Of a stretch of DNA of 10,815 nucleotides, positions 1,821-9,972 are shown piece after piece (within the stretch, counting starts at the first letter, position 1; each line of letters opens with the position of its first letter). This DNA comes from Candidatus Woesearchaeota archaeon. GTDB lineage: Archaea > Nanobdellota > Nanobdellia > UBA10117 > WJKY01. The stretch covers positions 1-10,815 of the forward strand of contig WJKY01000040.1 in assembly GCA_014728835.1 (NCBI GenBank), written 5' to 3'. A program made the translations under genes and the position numbers. The notes beneath the pieces were generated by a model that worked only from the letters and a program-made list of their open reading frames with translations, was not told the DNA's origin and searched no databases.

Positions 1821-2504
1821 TTATTTTTTCACTAATTTTGCTTTTTTGATAACATATTGCCCGTGGTCGCCCTTCCAAATTTTTTCAGCTTCTTGGATTT
1901 CTATTTTTTTCTTAAAAACAGGACCATCTAAAACTATTGTTTCAAATTCTCCACCTTCCCCTGAAAGATGAATTCCATATCTTTGATGCATTAATTTTAA
2001 TTTTTCAAGAGTTTCTGTATTTAATTCTCTGCCAAGCCAGGACTCATCAAAACCATGTGCAGAAACAGATGTAATAATTACTTTAAAACCAGCTTTAATA
2101 AGTTCTGTAAGATATATTTCAGGGTCTAAATGCCAAAGCAAAGCTAAGCTTCGTAGCCCCAAATCACTGCATATTGCTTCGATTCTAAATCTTTGATATT
2201 GTGATGCTACTGCACCTGAAACTACGCCTTCTATTTTGTAATCTCGCATTGCTTTTTTTAGTGCTAATTCAAGGTCTTTTAGTTCTTTTTCTTTTATTCC
2301 TTTTGTTTTTCTAAATATAATAGGGATTCCAATAGCTTTTGCTTGTAATTTAACCATATCTATATTGGGAATGTGAAACATGTAAGAATATGGATTTTCT
2401 GATTTTATTGCTACTAAAACAGCAATATCTCTACCTTGTTCTATTGCTCTATGGAGCGCAAAAACGCTGTCTTTGCCACCGCTGAATAAAACTGCAACTT
2501 TCAT
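1821..2504 (-). CDS. dph6: PP-loop ATP-binding protein of the MJ0570/Dph6 family (putative diphthine-ammonia ligase)
   Basis: MKVAVLFSGGKDS is a PP-loop motif, and SGEGGEFETIVLDGP is typical of the family. I place the start at ATG 2504, which is preceded by AGAGGGTG, rather than at the track's TTG 2540. Confidence 0.8.
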   Translation of the reverse strand: MKVAVLFSGGKDSVFALHRAIEQGRDIAVLVAIKSENPYSYMFHIPNIDMVKLQAKAIGIPIIFRKTKGIKEKELKDLELALKKAMRDYKIEGVVSGAVASQYQRFRIEAICSDLGLRSLALLWHLDPEIYLTELIKAGFKVIITSVSAHGFDESWLGRELNTETLEKLKLMHQRYGIHLSGEGGEFETIVLDGPVFKKKIEIQEAEKIWKGDHGQYVIKKAKLVKK

Positions 2505-2673
2505 AAAAACACCCTCTTTAGCGGGAAATTGTAGTCTCAATTAAACAATATAAACTTTTGGGAAAAACCGAATTCTTTTAAAATACTTATTTTGACTTTA
2601 AATTAGCAGAATCTTCGAATGCCCTAACAAAATCTAGGGACATAAGAACTGCTGTTAACTGGCGGAATCAGTT

Positions 2674-2782
2674 GCGTCGGTAGTCTAGTCTGGTAGGACT
2701 CTGGCCTTCCATATCGTGAAAAGAAATTTTCGCGGAATTCTGGAGAAAGCCAGCGACGTGGGTTCAAATCCCGCCCGACGCA
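2674..2782 (+). tRNA. tRNA-Gly(UCC) with one canonical 37/38 intron
   Basis: Acceptor GCGTCGG/CCGACGC plus discriminator A. D-arm GTCT-AGTCTGGTA-GGAC. Anticodon stem CTGGC/GCCAG with loop CT-TCC-A[intron]A. T-arm GTGGG-TTCAAAT-CCCGC. Mature length is 73 nt after removing 2712-2747. Confidence 0.85.
2712..2747 (+). other. tRNA-Gly intron (36 nt), BHB-type, position 37/38
   Basis: Central 4-bp helix C2706-G2745, T2707-A2744, T2708-G2743, C2709-G2742, flanked by 3-nt bulges CAT (2710-2712) and AAA (2746-2748). The intron core is an 8-bp hairpin 2715-2734 capped by a GAAA tetraloop. Confidence 0.7.
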
Positions 2783-2785
2783 TTT

Positions 2786-3931
2786 CTATAATCTTGCCAT
2801 TGCAAAGTATATGGCTGCGATAGCAGCAATTGCAAAAGCTATCTTAAATTTAAGCAAAAGCGGCACCAATATTAAGAAAAATAATGCTATAGTGCGACCT
2901 GAACAATAAGATAAATCTCTAAAACTCATAAATTCTGTTCTAGTACCTGGTTTTAAATTATCACAAAAGAATGTGAACATTGGTATTGCGATCCCTGTCC
3001 AACCCACACCTATGAAAAAAGACATGCCATATATTGCAAATGGGTTTGTAATAAAAATCAAACCAATAAAAACCAGTGATAGTATTATTGCGCTAGCTCT
3101 CATAATTGCTTTTTTGCCGAATTTATCAGTTGCCCTGCCCAATAAAATTGCGCAAATAGCTATTCCCAAACTCATCAGAGATACTGCTGCGCCAGTAATT
3201 GAAAAGTTCTGACTGAGTGTGAATATATAAATAGGAAACATTACAAATACAGGCACCATTACAAAACCTTGGACAAAGAAATCATCAAACCAATGTAAAT
3301 TTTTTTTGCTAAATATTTGTTTCCATTTGTATTTCATGTGGCTTTTATATTCGTAACTTAAAAAAAGTGGGGCAACAGAAACTAAAAGTAAAACTGCTGC
3401 AATTAAAAATAAAAGACTAAATCCAAATGAAGCTATCATAACTCCACCAATAAAAGGCGCTGTTACAGCTGCAACTTTTGGTAAAGCTGTAAATAAACCT
3501 GTTTCAGTTCCTCTGCGTCCTTTATTACTTGATTTGGTAAAATGTGAATTCATCGGAACCCAATATATAATTGCTCCTATGGCGCCGACAATTGCAATCG
3601 GATACAATGGTAAATTTATTTCTCCTATGCTACGCAAAAGTAAAAGATAAACAATAGTAAGGCCAGGACCTATTGCAATTGTATGTTTCAGGCCAGCTTT
3701 TGAAGATATAACTGATACAATTGGAGCAAAAATCGCCATTGTTAAATAAAAAATAGCTAAATAAAATAGGGCTTGATTAAGTTCATATCCAAGATTTAAT
3801 AAATACATTGGAATAAAAACCGAAACTAATGATAAAGAAAATGCTCTCATGATTGTTGCAGCATATATTTCTTTAAGTTCTTTTTTTATTTTAGTCAGTG
3901 ACAATTTATGCAATAATAAATTATAGGGCAT
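2786..3931 (-). CDS. MFS-type membrane transporter
   Basis: 381 aa, almost entirely hydrophobic with about 10-12 predicted helices. It has an MFS motif-A-like loop, LLGRATDKFGKKAIM. Substrate is unknown. Confidence 0.7.
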   Translation of the reverse strand: MPYNLLLHKLSLTKIKKELKEIYAATIMRAFSLSLVSVFIPMYLLNLGYELNQALFYLAIFYLTMAIFAPIVSVISSKAGLKHTIAIGPGLTIVYLLLLRSIGEINLPLYPIAIVGAIGAIIYWVPMNSHFTKSSNKGRRGTETGLFTALPKVAAVTAPFIGGVMIASFGFSLLFLIAAVLLLVSVAPLFLSYEYKSHMKYKWKQIFSKKNLHWFDDFFVQGFVMVPVFVMFPIYIFTLSQNFSITGAAVSLMSLGIAICAILLGRATDKFGKKAIMRASAIILSLVFIGLIFITNPFAIYGMSFFIGVGWTGIAIPMFTFFCDNLKPGTRTEFMSFRDLSYCSGRTIALFFLILVPLLLKFKIAFAIAAIAAIYFAMARL

Positions 3932-3981
3932 ATTTTTATGTAGGGGATAGTATTTTTAAAGCCTTTTTACTAAAATTTATC

Positions 3982-4620
3982 ATGACAAAAATAATATTTG
4001 TGGCGCATGCTGATGATGGTGTGCTTGGATGCGGCGGAACAATTGCAAAACTTATCAGGCAAAAAGAAAAAGTAATTGTTGTTGTACTTTTTTCTGAAGA
4101 AAATAATCATACTCTGCTAGATACTTCTATTTTAAAAGAGCGGAAAACAAAAGAAGCAAAACGCGCATTTGGATTGCTTGGATGCAATAATATTATTTTT
4201 TTAGGTTTAAAAGAACTAAAAATAAAAAAGCAAATTAAAAACTCTAAAGTCATCAATAAAATTGAAAAAATTTTAGAGAAATATAAACCATATACTATTT
4301 TTACACATGCTCCTGATGATCCTCATCCTGCGCATAGAATAGTTACTGAATTAATTAAAAAAATGCTTATAAAATCAAAGCAAAAAATTGAAATATATAC
4401 ATTTACAATATCAACTCCGTTCAGGCTAATTAAACGAAACAGGCCTAAACTATATATTGACATTAGCAAAACTTACAAATTAAAAAATAAAGCATTGGAG
4501 ATGTTTAAGAGTCAAAGAAGTTTTATGCTTTATTATAAGAGTATAGTATGGCTGCGTAATTGGTTGGGCGGATTTAAAGCTGGCAGCAAATATGCTGAAG
4601 TTTTTACAAAAGATAAGTAG
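3982..4620 (+). CDS. PIG-L/LmbE-family deacetylase
   Basis: MTKIIFVAHADDGVLGCGGTIAK matches the AHPDDE-like motif, and HAPDDPHPAHRIV matches the HPDH-like motif. The start is moved to ATG 3982; the track's GTG 3898 extension would overlap the divergent MFS gene. Confidence 0.78.
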   Translation: MTKIIFVAHADDGVLGCGGTIAKLIRQKEKVIVVVLFSEENNHTLLDTSILKERKTKEAKRAFGLLGCNNIIFLGLKELKIKKQIKNSKVINKIEKILEKYKPYTIFTHAPDDPHPAHRIVTELIKKMLIKSKQKIEIYTFTISTPFRLIKRNRPKLYIDISKTYKLKNKALEMFKSQRSFMLYYKSIVWLRNWLGGFKAGSKYAEVFTKDK

Positions 4621-4622
4621 TT

Positions 4623-4630
4623 TTTTAAAT
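4623..4630 (+). promoter_or_regulatory. TATA-box-like element for tRNA-Arg
   Basis: TTTTAAAT is centred about 25 nt upstream of tRNA position 1 (4651). T-runs at 4621-4626 and 4642-4647 could also terminate the upstream CDS. Confidence 0.45.
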
Positions 4631-4667
4631 GAAATATGTGGTTTTTTATTGCTCCTGTAGCTCAGTC

Positions 4668-4752
4668 ACAGCTGAAAGGTCAGCTGGCACCCTGTGCACA
4701 TTCCTTTGAAATGTACAGCGGTTTTGCCGAACACGACCTTTGGTTGCTGAAT
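4668..4752 (+). other. tRNA-Arg intron 1 (about 85 nt) in the D-loop, just 5' of G18G19
   Basis: 4-bp helix TCAG(4662-4665)/CTGA(4747-4750) with 3-nt bulges TCA (4666-4668) and ATT (4751-4753). The inner helix includes AAAGGTC(4675-4681)/GACCTTT(4735-4741). Exact junctions are uncertain by 1-2 nt. Confidence 0.6.
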
Positions 4753-4774
4753 TGGATAGAGCACTTCCCTCCTA

Positions 4775-4793
4775 GAACTAAAAAGTTAGAGAA
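4775..4793 (+). other. tRNA-Arg intron 2 (19 nt), canonical 37/38
   Basis: Central helix C4769-G4791, T4770-A4790, C4771-G4789 plus a C.A mismatch. Bulges are TAG (4773-4775) and AAA (4792-4794). Inner helix is AAC(4776-4778)/GTT(4785-4787). Confidence 0.7.
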
Positions 4794-4815
4794 AGGAAGG
4801 AGTCGTGGGTTCAAA

Positions 4816-4857
4816 GGTCGGGCGCTTCCGACAGCTTATGAAGCGTTGACTTGAAAG
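4816..4857 (+). other. tRNA-Arg intron 3 (42 nt) in the T-loop, position 59/60
   Basis: T-loop TTCA(4810-4813) pairs with TGAA(4852-4855). The 3' bulge is AGT (4856-4858) and the 5' bulge is AAG (4814-4816). Inner helix is GTC(4817-4819)/GAC(4848-4850). Removal restores T-loop TTCAAAT and T-stem GTGGG/CCCAT. Confidence 0.65.
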
Positions 4858-4871
4858 TCCCATCAGGAGCA

Positions 4872-6491
4872 CTATCTTGTAAAAGAAATATCTTTGCCAG
4901 ATACTAAAGCATCTAAAACTTGTCTGCCGAGTTTTGATTTTTTGTAGATTCTTGCTGTGCCTTTCCGGTTTACAGACAAAGTTTTGATTGGTTTATTATT
5001 TATTTGTAAATTAACTGATCTTACGCGGTCTTTAAAATAAAAATTAATGAATTTTTTTGTTTCTTTTATTCTATAGGGAATACTCATTTGTGTGCGCCCT
5101 CTTCTGCGTTTTTTAATTGGCACAACAACTGTGTGTTCGCCATAAGAATAAATTTCATATTCGAGTTGACCAGTTTCAAAATCATTAACTTCAACTATTG
5201 GTCTTGCTAAATCAGCTTCTGTCATTCCTGTTGGAACTTTTACTCTCATGCTAAGTTCCAGAACTTTATCAACTTCTCCTTTGTCAATAAAGACAACAGT
5301 GTCAATAATTTGTGGAATCATTCCAAGTTCAACTCTGCCAACAAATCTTTGCACAGCATCAATTGGATTTGTTGCATGAATTACACCAGCTAAACCAATA
5401 CCTGCGAGGCGTAAATCAGCGTAAAGCTTGAAATCATGTGTTGTTCGCATCTCATCAAACATCGTATAATCTGGACGCGTAAGCAAAAGAACATTGTGTA
5501 TGCTTTGCCGGGAGCCAAAATCTTTTGAGTATTGAGTAATTTTATCAGGCACTTGCAAGTCTCTTGGAGATTCAATTGTTTTGATTATTTTATCTTCTTT
5601 AGCATAAAATTTTGCCAGAGCAGCTGTAAAAGTTGTCTTACCAGAACCAGGCGCGCCTGATACTAAAATTCCTGTTGCACTGGTTTTTAATCTTTGTTTT
5701 AATTTATTAGAAAGATTATAATCTTTAAGTTCCAAAGTAGCTACTGGTCGCACAGCAGTAATTTCCCAACCATCTGAAAATGGTGGTTTGCAAATAACTA
5801 TTCTAAAATTTTTAAACTGAACAATATTTATTCCTGGACTAGAGATCTCAATAAAAGCGCCTTGTGTAAGTTTTGTTTTTTCAATTATGTCTGCAGCAAA
5901 AACTTTTACATCATGTGCGCTAAGTTTTGTTTTTCTAAGTAATTTAAACTGCCATTTACCTGGTTTTCCTTGTTTTGCAAGAGGTATTGAATCTTCTTTC
6001 AGATGCACAGACATTGTATTTGGAGTAAAAAATTTTTCAATGTCTAGAGCTTTAATTTTTTTTGCTGAAACAGGTAGTATAAGAATTGTTTTAATGCCCA
6101 TTGCTTCGGCAACTAAAGATTGTACGCGATCTGCAGTAATCAAAACTGCGCGTTTGTCATATGCTATACTACGAATCATATCATCAATTGCGCCCGCATG
6201 TGCGCGTTTAATATGCCATTCTTTTGGTCGTTCACCTTCATAATCTAAATGAATTTTCTTTTTCTTTGCAAGCTCTCTAAGCGATGTTATTTCTTCCAAA
6301 CCAATAAAACCTTCAGATTGATTTTGATTTGCTTGGTTTTCTAATTCTGCAAGAACTGCACGCGGAATAATGATTTTGCCTGCAATTTTTTTCTTTTTAA
6401 CTAAATCAGAAACTTTGCGTTCAATAACTATAGATGTATCTACTACATATGTTTTTCTTGATAATTTGGTGGCTTTTTTCTTTTTTTTCAT
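4872..6491 (-). CDS. PIN-domain / PilT-type (VirB11-like) ATPase, archaeal COG1855-like
   Basis: N-terminal PIN domain: YVVDTSIVIE, AVLAELE, LITADRVQSLVAEAMGI. ATPase core: Walker A GAPGSGKTT, TIESPRDLQ, Walker-B-like RPDYTMFDEMR, and GVIHATNPIDAVQRF. I place the start at ATG 6491, which forms an ATGA overlap with the upstream stop. Confidence 0.8.
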   Translation of the reverse strand: MKKKKKATKLSRKTYVVDTSIVIERKVSDLVKKKKIAGKIIIPRAVLAELENQANQNQSEGFIGLEEITSLRELAKKKKIHLDYEGERPKEWHIKRAHAGAIDDMIRSIAYDKRAVLITADRVQSLVAEAMGIKTILILPVSAKKIKALDIEKFFTPNTMSVHLKEDSIPLAKQGKPGKWQFKLLRKTKLSAHDVKVFAADIIEKTKLTQGAFIEISSPGINIVQFKNFRIVICKPPFSDGWEITAVRPVATLELKDYNLSNKLKQRLKTSATGILVSGAPGSGKTTFTAALAKFYAKEDKIIKTIESPRDLQVPDKITQYSKDFGSRQSIHNVLLLTRPDYTMFDEMRTTHDFKLYADLRLAGIGLAGVIHATNPIDAVQRFVGRVELGMIPQIIDTVVFIDKGEVDKVLELSMRVKVPTGMTEADLARPIVEVNDFETGQLEYEIYSYGEHTVVVPIKKRRRGRTQMSIPYRIKETKKFINFYFKDRVRSVNLQINNKPIKTLSVNRKGTARIYKKSKLGRQVLDALVSGKDISFTR

Positions 6492-7372: not shown

Positions 7373-7550
7373 GTCCGTCGCTGCAATGCCTCAGTATATC
7401 CGCAACCGCGGTGAAGGTAAGCGCATTCCCCAATTCGAACGAAGTTCGAATGGGCCCCATCGAAACTATGTTTGATTAGGGCTTTGGACTGCACTGCACG
7501 GGATGCCGGCTTTGCCGAGATCGCATCTCGTGTCGCAACGGCGAAACGTT
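7373..7550 (+). ncRNA. Unassigned GC-rich structured RNA candidate directly abutting tRNA-Thr
   Basis: About 55% G+C by hand count, in an AT-rich genome. There are four consecutive strong hairpins at 7429-7454, 7456-7481, 7497-7532 and 7535-7552. There is no credible ORF. Strand is assigned by contiguity with the tRNA and the upstream TATA; the 5' end is uncertain (7373 to about 7421). Confidence 0.5.
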
Positions 7551-7624
7551 GCTTCGGTAGCATAGTCTGGTAATGCGTCTGCCTCGTAAGCAGAAGATCG
7601 AGAGTTCAAATCTCTCCCGGGGCT
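7551..7624 (+). tRNA. tRNA-Thr(CGU), intron-less
   Basis: GCTTCGG TA GCAT AGTCTGGTA ATGC G TCTGC CTCGTAA GCAGA AGATC GAGAG TTCAAAT CTCTC CCGGGGC T, 74 nt. The acceptor stem has two U-G pairs (3:70, 4:69) and the discriminator is U. Confidence 0.88.
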
Positions 7625-9092: not shown

Positions 9093-9182
9093 TTGGCCTC
9101 TCCCTAAGTTAAATAGCATAGAATTGCTTTATTTAAATAGATTCCCCTTATAAAAAGCACTTAAAAAAGATAAATCGCAACC

Positions 9183-9190
9183 TTTAAAAA
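9183..9190 (+). promoter_or_regulatory. TATA-box-like element for the 9209-9380 RNA
   Basis: TTTAAAAA is centred about 23-26 nt upstream of G9209, the first base of the long helix. Confidence 0.45.
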
Positions 9191-9208
9191 GGGAAATTAT
9201 GACTTTAA

Positions 9209-9380
9209 GGTAGTGATTCTGGAAGACTACATTAGTAGTCGCAGCAAAGCTTTGCTTTGTTGTGCCCTCCTTCCAGTTCTCACACCTCCTAATTCGGGTT
9301 TTATACTCGAATATCGAGCCTTGAGTTTACTCAAGGTTCATTATAAACTGGCGCAGAAACCTTTGAAACTGCGCCATAAA
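9209..9380 (+). ncRNA. Unassigned structured RNA candidate (three-way junction plus three hairpins), or a long structured leader of the 80-aa ORF
   Basis: A 14-bp long-range helix pairs 9209-9225 with 9270-9286 and encloses hairpins 9226-9239 and 9241-9265. Further hairpins lie at 9292-9312, 9316-9339 (10 bp) and 9349-9376 (8 GC-rich bp). G+C is about 43% by hand count. The overlapping 79-aa ORF has atypical composition. Confidence 0.5.
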
Positions 9381-9397
9381 TACTTAAAGGATGGAAA

Positions 9398-9640
9398 ATG
9401 GGAAAGGAATACGACTTTAATGAAGCTTTTGCAGAAGCATATACAGAACTGATAGGCCCTAAAACTCATAAACGGTCTACTGAAGCACAAATATTATACA
9501 TAAAAGGTGTAAAAGGTCTAGAGCAATATATTGCGCAAAAGAGATTACAAAACCCTGAAATAGCAGATTTCACAGAAAGCGGCATGAAATTAAAAAAGTT
9601 ACTTCATGATATAACTAATCTCGTGTCTAGACTTAACTAA
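9398..9640 (+). CDS. Hypothetical small protein (80 aa)
   Basis: ATG ORF with composition like the neighbouring genes, followed by a T-rich terminator. I recognise no family. Confidence 0.5.
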   Translation: MGKEYDFNEAFAEAYTELIGPKTHKRSTEAQILYIKGVKGLEQYIAQKRLQNPEIADFTESGMKLKKLLHDITNLVSRLN

Positions 9641-9667
9641 TTTTTATTTTTAATTTTTATTTTTAAT
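9638..9667 (+). terminator. T-rich terminator region formed by a perfect 13-nt tandem duplication
   Basis: TAATTTTTATTTT occurs at 9638-9650 and 9651-9663, followed by TAAT. It contains several T4-T5 runs directly after the stop codon, as expected for archaeal oligo-T termination. Confidence 0.5.
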
Positions 9668-9671
9668 AAAG

Positions 9672-9679
9672 CTTATAAA
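9672..9679 (+). promoter_or_regulatory. TATA box for 5S rRNA
   Basis: CTTATAAA is centred about 26 nt upstream of the 5S 5' end. Confidence 0.5.
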
Positions 9680-9700
9680 CCCTTAAAATTCACAAATTAT

Positions 9701-9817
9701 TGTCAGCGGTCAAAGCACCGAGGTAATACCTGATCTCATTTCGAACTCAGAAGTTAAGCTCGGTTACGTTTTGGTGTGTACTTCGTCATACGCGGGAAAG
9801 CCAAAAAGCTGCTGACA
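9701..9817 (+). rRNA. 5S ribosomal RNA (stand-alone gene)
   Basis: Helix I pairs GTCAGCGG (9702-9709) with GCTGCTGAC. The conserved core CCTGATCTCATTTCGAACTCAGAAGTTAAGCTCGG is present. Helix II is ACCGAG/CTCGGT, and helix IV/V is TTTTGG...CCAAAA. Confidence 0.9.
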
Positions 9818-9822
9818 TTATA
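9807..9822 (+). repeat. Direct repeat copy 1 (AGCTGCTGACATTATA), covering the 5S 3' end plus 5 nt
   Basis: Exact 16-nt match to 9957-9972. Confidence 0.9.
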
Positions 9823-9956: not shown

Positions 9957-9972
9957 AGCTGCTGACATTATA
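9957..9972 (+). repeat. Direct repeat copy 2 (AGCTGCTGACATTATA)
   Basis: Exact 16-nt match to 9807-9822, 150 nt downstream. It lies immediately before the rnp4 TATA-like element. Confidence 0.9.

Follow-up and report, generated by a model that had tools for sequence, protein, structure and literature searches.

Introduction

With reference to the published work on archaeal tRNA introns, the splicing motif consists of a 4-bp helix between two 3-nt bulges bearing the splice sites; at the canonical site the first two anticodon nucleotides lie within this helix, the relaxed forms HBh', hBH and BHL are also accepted, and the published non-canonical intron positions include 20/21 and 59/60, alongside introns at 37/38 (PMC4090602). 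tRNAs with more than one intron have been reported from Crenarchaeota, Nanoarchaeum equitans, Methanopyrus kandleri, Methanothermobacter thermautotrophicus, Korarchaeum and ARMAN-1/2 (PMC4033280), and the reported maximum is three introns per tRNA (PMC4033280; PMC8450103). One such layout is that of Pyrobaculum islandicum tRNA-Pro(UGG), with introns at 25/26, 37/38 and 56/57, as the account of Sugahara et al. (2007) is relayed in PMC4090602. In this study, a stretch of 10,815 nt from Candidatus Woesearchaeota archaeon contig WJKY01000040.1, here called the window, was analysed, and we consider its forward-strand positions 4651-4871 to be, very probably (about 90%), a single-locus Woesearchaeota tRNA-Arg(CCU) gene, the ~221-nt precursor of which would carry three bulge-helix-bulge introns.

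As far as the P. islandicum tRNA-Pro(UGG) is described in that secondary source, the window gene resembles it in being colinear and in having three introns distributed over the D-arm, the canonical site and the T-arm, and differs from it in the non-canonical insertion points, which are 17/17a and 59/60. It also shares with the multi-intron tRNAs of the Thermoproteales the relaxed HBh'/hBH motifs at non-canonical sites. On the other hand, those tRNAs belong to hyperthermophilic crenarchaea, whereas the host of the window is a mesophile-like DPANN archaeon with a GC content of 33.5% over the window, and, unlike theirs, the window introns show no intron sequence families common to several tRNAs among the 91 loci compared.

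Within the DPANN superphylum, disrupted tRNA genes are known from ARMAN-1/2, which have an epsilon2 EndA, and from N. equitans, which has an (alpha-beta)2 EndA (PMC4033280). The available part of a DPANN survey (PMC5829648) includes one genome each from the Woesearchaeota and the Pacearchaeota, with an alpha4 EndA carrying an L3 loop; its tRNA genes were predicted with tRNAscan-SE 2, and its authors remark that the tRNA sets were incomplete and that disrupted genes had probably gone unidentified. The window gene thus has surveyed counterparts in the same superphylum, and in this survey in the same phylum, and the non-canonical or multiple introns of the other DPANN archaea are linked, in the part of the literature available, to endonucleases with specificity-broadening loops. 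The available text of the survey does not describe the window gene, the three-intron state or the orthologue series presented below, and a search of the literature in full text gave no further paper on Woesearchaeota tRNA introns. The initial annotation of the locus had regarded such tRNAs as reported mainly from Thermoproteales and a few other lineages. This was too narrow, as disrupted and multi-intron tRNAs were already on record for ARMAN-1/2, N. equitans and the DPANN survey (PMC4033280, and PMC5829648 in its available part); the three-intron layout is known in archaea, where it stands at the known maximum, and is barely documented in the lineage of the window. Thaumarchaeota, which are a different phylum, offer a further parallel, with AT-rich genomes and many non-canonical bulge-helix-bulge introns that require clade-specific models, the second intron model of tRNAscan-SE 2 being theirs (PMC8450103).

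Structure of the tRNA-Arg(CCU) gene

The acceptor strands GCTCCTG (4651-4657) and CAGGAGC (4864-4870) are perfect complements, the starts of which lie 213 nt apart. Excising 4668-4752 (85 nt), 4775-4793 (19 nt) and 4816-4857 (42 nt), and joining the remaining pieces 4651-4667, 4753-4774, 4794-4815 and 4858-4871, yields the 75-nt sequence GCTCCTGTAGCTCAGTCTGGATAGAGCACTTCCCTCCTAAGGAAGGAGTCGTGGGTTCAAATCCCATCAGGAGCA. ARAGORN calls this spliced 75-mer a tRNA-Arg(cct) with stems of 7/4/5/5 bp, the D-loop AGTCTGGATA (AGUCUGGAUA as RNA), the anticodon loop CTCCTAA (CUCCUAA) and the T-loop TTCAAAT (UUCAAAU). All the stem pairs are intact (21/21), and direct reading shows that the near-universal tRNA nucleotides U8, A14, G18 G19, A21, U33, G53, T54 T55 C56, A58 and C61 are all retained. 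The acceptor pair, the three deletions, the 75-nt cloverleaf and the loop sequences had all been proposed in the initial annotation, and sequence reading and ARAGORN bear them out; the proposed match of the D-loop motif AGTCTGG to the other two tRNAs of the window was likewise found again, in tRNA-Gly(TCC) (2674-2782) and tRNA-Thr(CGT) (7551-7624).

All the parts lie on the forward strand. Exon 1 (4651-4667) comprises the 5' strand of the acceptor stem, U8 and A9, the 5' strand of the D-stem and the D-loop up to C17, and in the alignment it matches positions 1-17 of the intron-less orthologues on the related metagenomic contigs L007 and L009 (L-numbered loci are contigs of this kind throughout). 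Intron 1 (4668-4752) has a relaxed motif and interrupts the D-loop at 17/17a. Exon 2 (4753-4774) follows with the remainder of the D-loop, the 3' strand of the D-stem, the 5' strand of the anticodon stem and the anticodon loop up to A37, including the anticodon CCT at 4771-4773. After intron 2 (4775-4793), which sits at the canonical position 37/38, exon 3 (4794-4815) supplies A38, the 3' strand of the anticodon stem, the variable loop, the 5' strand of the T-stem and the T-loop up to A59. Intron 3 (4816-4857) lies in the T-loop at 59/60, and exon 4 (4858-4871) contributes U60, the 3' strands of the T-stem and the acceptor stem and the discriminator A73, with no CCA encoded at the 3' end. All four exons follow one another in order on the same strand and together span 221 nt, which sets the locus apart from split and permuted tRNA genes.

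A TATA-like box, TTTTTAAA, is located at 4623-4630 (+), ~21-28 nt upstream of tRNA position 1, as a putative archaeal promoter, and TTTAAA-type elements starting at about -26 to -36 were detected in 11 of the 15 orthologous loci. Together, these boxes suggest that the tRNA-Arg gene is transcribed. AGG represents 9 of the 105 Arg codons in the window genes, so that a tRNA-Arg(CCU) would have codons to read.

Comparison with orthologous loci

A scan of genome contigs with the PIN-domain ATPase of the window gave just loci with 49-58% identity, none of which had the tRNA neighbourhood. A scan of metagenomes with the PIN-ATPase alignment provided 80 further loci, in which tRNAs were located by ARAGORN and a pattern search. 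The tRNA-Arg(CCT) of L007/L008 and that of L009 have no intron and are situated between the genes for the PIG-L deacetylase and the ATPase (at 5742-5816 in L007 and at 3900-3974 in L009), and the three insertions of the window coincide exactly with the alignment gaps against these copies of L007 and L009, at 17/17a, 37/38 and 59/60. The tRNA-Arg(CCT) genes of L012, L016, L017, L018, L021 and L022 (also L064 and L080/L082) are intron-less as well. Single introns were found in L011 (16 nt, D-loop), L013 (33 nt, canonical position) and L024 (22 nt, D-loop), and two introns each in L015 (102 nt at the canonical position and 23 nt at 59/60) and L073 (36 nt in the D-loop and 61 nt at the canonical position). 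A 23-nt placement of the L024 intron gave a poor motif and was rejected in favor of the 22-nt placement, which leaves a 75-nt product and a 4/4 helix. The orientation of the tRNA-Arg relative to the ATPase differs among the loci, and their adjacency is constant.

In total, 14 spliced or intron-less tRNA-Arg sequences were aligned, and they align without gaps. Standard pairs occupy 99.3% of the cells of the cloverleaf in this alignment, and in 13 of the 21 pairs both partners vary. The covariation score reached 0.683 as against 0.188 in shuffles, with none of 500 shuffles attaining the observed value, and pairing fell to 34-53% in a control in which the partners were slid by 1-3 columns. The window tRNA-Arg is identical to the other 13 at 46-61 of the 75 positions (19-39% divergence), and the survival of all 21 pairs at this level of identity argues against a decaying pseudogene. 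The proposal of a tRNA-Arg(CCU) gene with three introns, two of them at non-canonical positions, is accordingly backed from several sides, namely the ARAGORN call, the orthologues, the covarying cloverleaf and the in-register geometry that is treated below.

Splicing motifs

The boundaries of the introns were set by the orthologue alignment, independently of any motif. For an intron of length n, the register places exon positions -6 to -3 opposite intron positions n-5 to n-2 in the central helix, bulge 1 being formed by the last two exon nucleotides and intron nucleotide 1, and bulge 2 by the last two intron nucleotides and the first nucleotide of the next exon. In intron 1, this register gives the central helix UCAG/CUGA (U12-G15) with 4/4 Watson-Crick pairs, the bulges UC plus A and AU plus U, and an inner helix h' of 8 bp; the outer exon helix measures only 1 bp, so that the 3' site would lie in an open loop of a relaxed (HBh'/BHL-like) substrate. 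Intron 2 has an hBHBh' arrangement, with the central helix CUCC/AGAG (3/4 pairs and a C35.A mismatch), the 5-bp anticodon stem as its outer helix, the bulges UA plus G and AA plus A, and a 4-bp inner hairpin, AACU/AGUU. Intron 3 displays a full hBHBh' arrangement, with the central helix UUCA/UGAA (4/4 Watson-Crick), the bulges AA plus G and AG plus U, the 5-bp T-stem as outer helix and an inner hairpin that extends from intron nucleotide 1/2 to 36. The 4-bp central helix that had been drawn at every junction is therefore present for introns 1 and 3 and falls one pair short for intron 2, and the relaxed version that had been allowed for at the same time applies to intron 1 with its 1-bp outer helix.

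To put these helices into proportion, every equal-length placement on both strands of the window was evaluated, which gave chance rates of 0.7-0.8% for 4/4 Watson-Crick pairs, 2.3-2.5% for 4/4 pairs when G-U is included, and 16% for at least 3/4 pairs. Among 12 introns of the clade (10 from tRNA-Arg and 2 from tRNA-Gly), 8 have a 4/4 helix and 4 have a 3/4 helix, the best of two to four options being taken where placements were equivalent. The C.A mismatch of intron 2 (H3 = AGAG) recurs in the L073 orthologue, and the 59/60 insertion point of intron 3 is reused in the tRNA-Arg of L015 and in the tRNA-Gly of L007.

When folded alone, introns 2 and 3 each form a hairpin from nucleotide 1 or 2 up to about nucleotide n-6, so that precisely six nucleotides stay unpaired at the 3' end, in keeping with the motif. 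The terminal stem of intron 1 takes up three nucleotides of the CUGA strand, and only the last three are free; this intron alone has a folding energy of -30.2 kcal/mol (z = -3.15). Forcing the three central helices together brings the 221-nt precursor to -73.8 kcal/mol, compared with -78.6 kcal/mol for the minimum free energy (MFE) structure, and forcing a single central helix costs 2.0 kcal/mol for intron 1, 2.4 kcal/mol for intron 2 and 0.4 kcal/mol for intron 3. Judged at the level of sequence, the locus agrees with endonuclease-spliced multi-intron tRNA genes in every feature compared.

Alternative explanations

Certain observations weigh against the interpretation of the locus as a tRNA-Arg(CCU) gene with three introns spliced by an endonuclease. 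The outer exon helix of intron 1 is just 1 bp long, and its central helix uses the D-stem nucleotides U12 and C13, thereby competing with two D-stem pairs; the central helix of intron 2 contains the C35.A mismatch; and the unconstrained MFE fold omits the three central helices. Moreover, tRNA-Arg(UCU) could in principle decode the rare AGG codons, so that the tRNA-Arg(CCU) gene is not provably essential. It is improbable, and still deserves a hearing, that the gene is dead, having received three unrelated insertions that are not processed, with AGG decoding passed to another tRNA. The rarity of AGG (9/105 Arg codons), the rearrangement of the region, from which the neighbouring glycosyltransferase and DUF131 genes have been lost in the window, and the missing outer helix of intron 1 would all be compatible with such a fate. 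However, none of the 21 stem pairs or of the conserved loop nucleotides has been lost at 19-39% divergence, the promoter-like box is kept, similar introns are found in otherwise intact genes of the relatives, and the three insertions stand in exact register with two perfect helices (p ~0.0075 each), which random insertions would not do. It is much less probable still that at least one insertion is an element of another kind, either a self-splicing group I/II intron or an intron hosting a C/D box guide RNA. Intron 1 folds unusually well (z = -3.15), and intron-hosted C/D box small RNAs are known, the tRNA-Trp intron of Haloferax being one that hosts such an RNA. Nevertheless, no RUGAUGA C box was noticed on inspection of the sequence, no intron family was matched in Rfam, where the matches were non-significant (E = 2.3 and 3.6), and the window introns have no similar sequence in the 91 related loci. 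Group I/II introns have a core of roughly at least 200 nt and match an intron RNA family, neither of which applies to the three insertions, and their lengths of 19, 42 and 85 nt are far below the sizes of self-splicing introns, which in bacterial tRNA genes are mostly >200 nt (PMC8450103).

The two remaining explanations do away with the tRNA altogether. Three freely chosen deletions in AT-rich DNA offer many degrees of freedom, and the unspliced DNA is passed over by both ARAGORN and Rfam, from which it might be argued that the cloverleaf is an artefact of the deletions. This is effectively refuted by the orthologue alignment, since an uninterrupted tRNA occupies the same genomic position in the relatives and the deletions are exactly the alignment gaps; the cloverleaf covaries, and the bulge-helix-bulge register is satisfied though it was not used for the boundaries. 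It is just as hard to credit that the region encodes a 72-aa protein and that the tRNA-like pieces are incidental. An ATG-initiated open reading frame (ORF) of 72 codons does exist at 4636-4854 (+), overlapping the tRNA-Arg, but it has no Pfam match, the intron stretches that form most of it are absent from the relatives with an intron-less tRNA-Arg, and the conservation tracks the RNA pairing and not the reading frame. On the same grounds, namely the lack of a Pfam match and the absence of its intron stretches from the intron-less relatives, we agree with the initial annotation that this ORF is spurious.

Processing and the splicing endonuclease

Following the general knowledge of archaeal tRNA splicing, the locus would be transcribed as a precursor of ~221 nt. 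On either strand of each motif, cleavage by EndA would follow the second nucleotide of the bulge, and the 2',3'-cyclic phosphate and 5'-OH ends would be sealed by an RtcB-type ligase. The four exons would in this way give the 75-nt tRNA, which would receive its CCA after transcription, and the introns would come free, probably in circular form. Such processing would need an endonuclease of broad specificity, because intron 1 is without an outer helix and the central helix of intron 2 contains a mismatch. Such an enzyme would not have to be of the alpha2beta2 or epsilon2 type that had been predicted, since several DPANN lineages possess alpha4-type enzymes with an 'L3' loop that are tied to more tRNA gene disruption (Kaneta et al. 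2018, in the available part of PMC5829648).

A tblastn search of the related loci with an approximate Methanocaldococcus jannaschii EndA query gave nothing credible. A weak EndA match in L033 was discarded, as it runs antisense to a 693-aa gene. The three sites of the locus, of which one has a strict motif, one a mismatch and one no outer helix, could be used as one substrate for testing the specificity of a Woesearchaeota endonuclease, and the known understanding of how such introns work is unchanged by this locus.

Detection by annotation tools

On the unspliced window, ARAGORN did not find the tRNA-Arg locus with the intron option either off or on. Rfam gave no tRNA match for the unspliced locus at the gathering thresholds (29 bits for RF00005), and none at E <= 10 for 4550-4950, where just chance-level matches to SNORD67 and mir-460 appeared (E = 2.3 and 3.6). 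In comparison, the intron-less orthologues of L007-L009 reach 68.5-70.6 Rfam bits and are also called by ARAGORN. The intron-less Woesearchaeota orthologues share with the window gene the anticodon, the 75-nt cloverleaf, the adjacency to the PIN-ATPase and the upstream TATA-like box, and differ in that they are found by both tools (L007-L009), whereas the window copy is invisible to both.

The expectation that standard annotation would miss the gene is therefore correct for ARAGORN and Rfam, and the genome would be scored as being without tRNA-Arg(CCU), while the spurious 72-aa ORF might be annotated instead. Missing tRNAs in metagenome-assembled genomes of DPANN archaea are routinely taken as a sign of genome incompleteness or of reduced translation capacity. 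In the available part of their survey, Kaneta et al. (2018) flagged 'unidentified disrupted tRNA genes' in DPANN lineages (PMC5829648), and the intron models of tRNAscan-SE 2 were trained on Crenarchaeota/Euryarchaeota and Thaumarchaeota only (PMC8450103).

Possible intron turnover in the clade

The tRNA-Arg(CCU) orthologues carry 0, 1, 2 or 3 introns across the genomes, and the D-loop introns of the clade occupy three sites, 17/17a, 20/20a and 20a/21. With regard to the conservation of intron positions among orthologues, which the initial annotation had proposed to examine, some of the sites recur, the 59/60 site being reused in L015 and the canonical site being shared by L013, L015 and L073, and the number is not conserved, as it varies from 0 to 3. 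From these comparisons, we tentatively consider that the Woesearchaeota clade may be gaining (or losing) endonuclease-type introns, repeatedly and in recent time, to which we would give somewhat less than an even chance. In a BLAST search of all introns against the 91 related loci, the window introns match themselves only; being without detectable relatives, they offer no evidence on origin or mobility.

The introns of tRNA-Thr and tRNA-Gly vary too, indicating that the turnover of introns is not confined to tRNA-Arg. Across the clade, the orthologues of tRNA-Thr(CGT) and tRNA-Gly(TCC) are either intron-less or have introns of 13-72 nt, as at L014 5766-5852, L019 1906-2034, L073 5854-5982, L013 10576-10720, L018 3081-3194 and L021 3882-3994. 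The window tRNA-Gly(TCC) at 2674-2782 (+) harbors a 36-nt canonical intron (2712-2747), the central helix of which, CUUC/GGAG, has 4/4 pairs including one G-U. This tRNA scores 56.3 bits in Rfam, is missed by plain ARAGORN and is miscalled as tRNA-Ser(aga) by ARAGORN -i. Its orthologue in L009 is intron-less. In L007 (and L008), the tRNA-Gly(TCC) at ~2466-2616 (-) has no canonical intron and carries instead a 74-nt intron at 59/60, with the helix UUCA/UGGA and the T-stem as outer helix, which is the same site as that of intron 3 in the window; this L007 gene is missed by both ARAGORN and Rfam. The 5' end of the L007 tRNA-Gly, together with its upstream region (ctaccggcgcatgttttaagaaagtaaaatattggtttataaa), is doubled (~2607-2650 and ~2710-2750, ~100 nt apart), and this repeat may be a partial duplication or an integration scar.

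Two introns of different loci, the T-loop (59/60) intron of L015 at 9783-9805 and the D-loop intron of L024 at 2320-2341, have the 11-mer AGTGAAACTAG and a CAGAA tail in common. We estimate the chance expectation for such 11-mer matches among these introns at ~0.04-0.1. The shared AGTGAAACTAG may be a trace of intron transposition as in the Thermoproteales, the match being short and suggestive only.

Regardless of how it arose, the series of orthologues, which runs from 0 to 3 introns, provides compact material on the gain of archaeal tRNA introns. If the turnover is real and the clade has an alpha4 enzyme with the L3 loop, it would represent an expansion of mobile bulge-helix-bulge introns outside the Thermoproteales and independent of theirs, and would offer a natural series for studying intron movement.

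Gene neighbourhood and other features of the window

An archaeal set of proteins was identified in the window by Pfam, comprising deoxyhypusine synthase (DHS), PTH2, diphthamide synthase, an MFS transporter, the PIG-L deacetylase, the PIN-domain ATPase, TatD and PAC2. For PIG-L, the best match is the hypothetical protein GF374_01805 [Candidatus Woesearchaeota archaeon], at 100% identity, and the next best stands at 61%, which points to a sparsely sampled DPANN archaeon; the DPANN-like character that had been read from the DNA was right in this respect. An origin in the Thaumarchaeota (Nitrosopumilales), which the GC content of 33.5% had suggested, was rejected because the protein matches belong to Woesearchaeota/DPANN. 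Apart from the tRNA-Arg, the RNA genes of the window are tRNA-Gly(TCC) (2674-2782), tRNA-Thr(CGT) (7551-7624) and a 5S rRNA (9702-9817). The order of the genes is the same in the relatives, namely DHS, PTH2, Dph6, MFS, PIG-L, ..., PIN-ATPase, ..., tRNA-Thr, TatD, PAC2 and 5S, as seen on the contigs closest in PIG-L.

A comparison of window 3931-4872 with L007 3948-6056, L009 and L011 revealed that a gene for a 377-aa glycosyltransferase and a DUF131 gene, which lie between PIG-L and the PIN-ATPase in the relatives, are both absent from the window. As a result of their absence, the tRNA-Arg of the window abuts the PIG-L gene (30 nt) and the stop codon of the ATPase (0 nt).

Some further differences were observed near the 5S rRNA. 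An exact 16-nt direct repeat, AGCTGCTGACATTATA, occurs at 9807-9822 and 9957-9972 with a spacing of 150, its first copy being the 3' end of the 5S rRNA, and the ~134 nt between the two copies are absent from L007 in the alignment. Either an insertion that left a long target duplication or the duplication of part of the 5S gene could account for the AGCTGCTGACATTATA repeat. Upstream of the 5S rRNA, ~580 nt (9120-9700) separate it from PAC2, compared with ~48 nt at the equivalent place in L007. This region holds a hairpin-rich segment (~9210-9390) after a TTTAAAAA box, as well as an 80-aa ORF (9398-9640), and no Rfam match was obtained for it at E <= 1. Finally, a hairpin, GCAACGGCG(A/G)AACGTTGC, is located at 7535-7552 of the window, directly upstream of tRNA-Thr, the 5' end of which it overlaps, and a near-identical GCAACGGCG(A/G)AACGTTGC hairpin lies at ~2683-2700 in L007, where it adjoins the duplicated 5' fragment of the tRNA-Gly.

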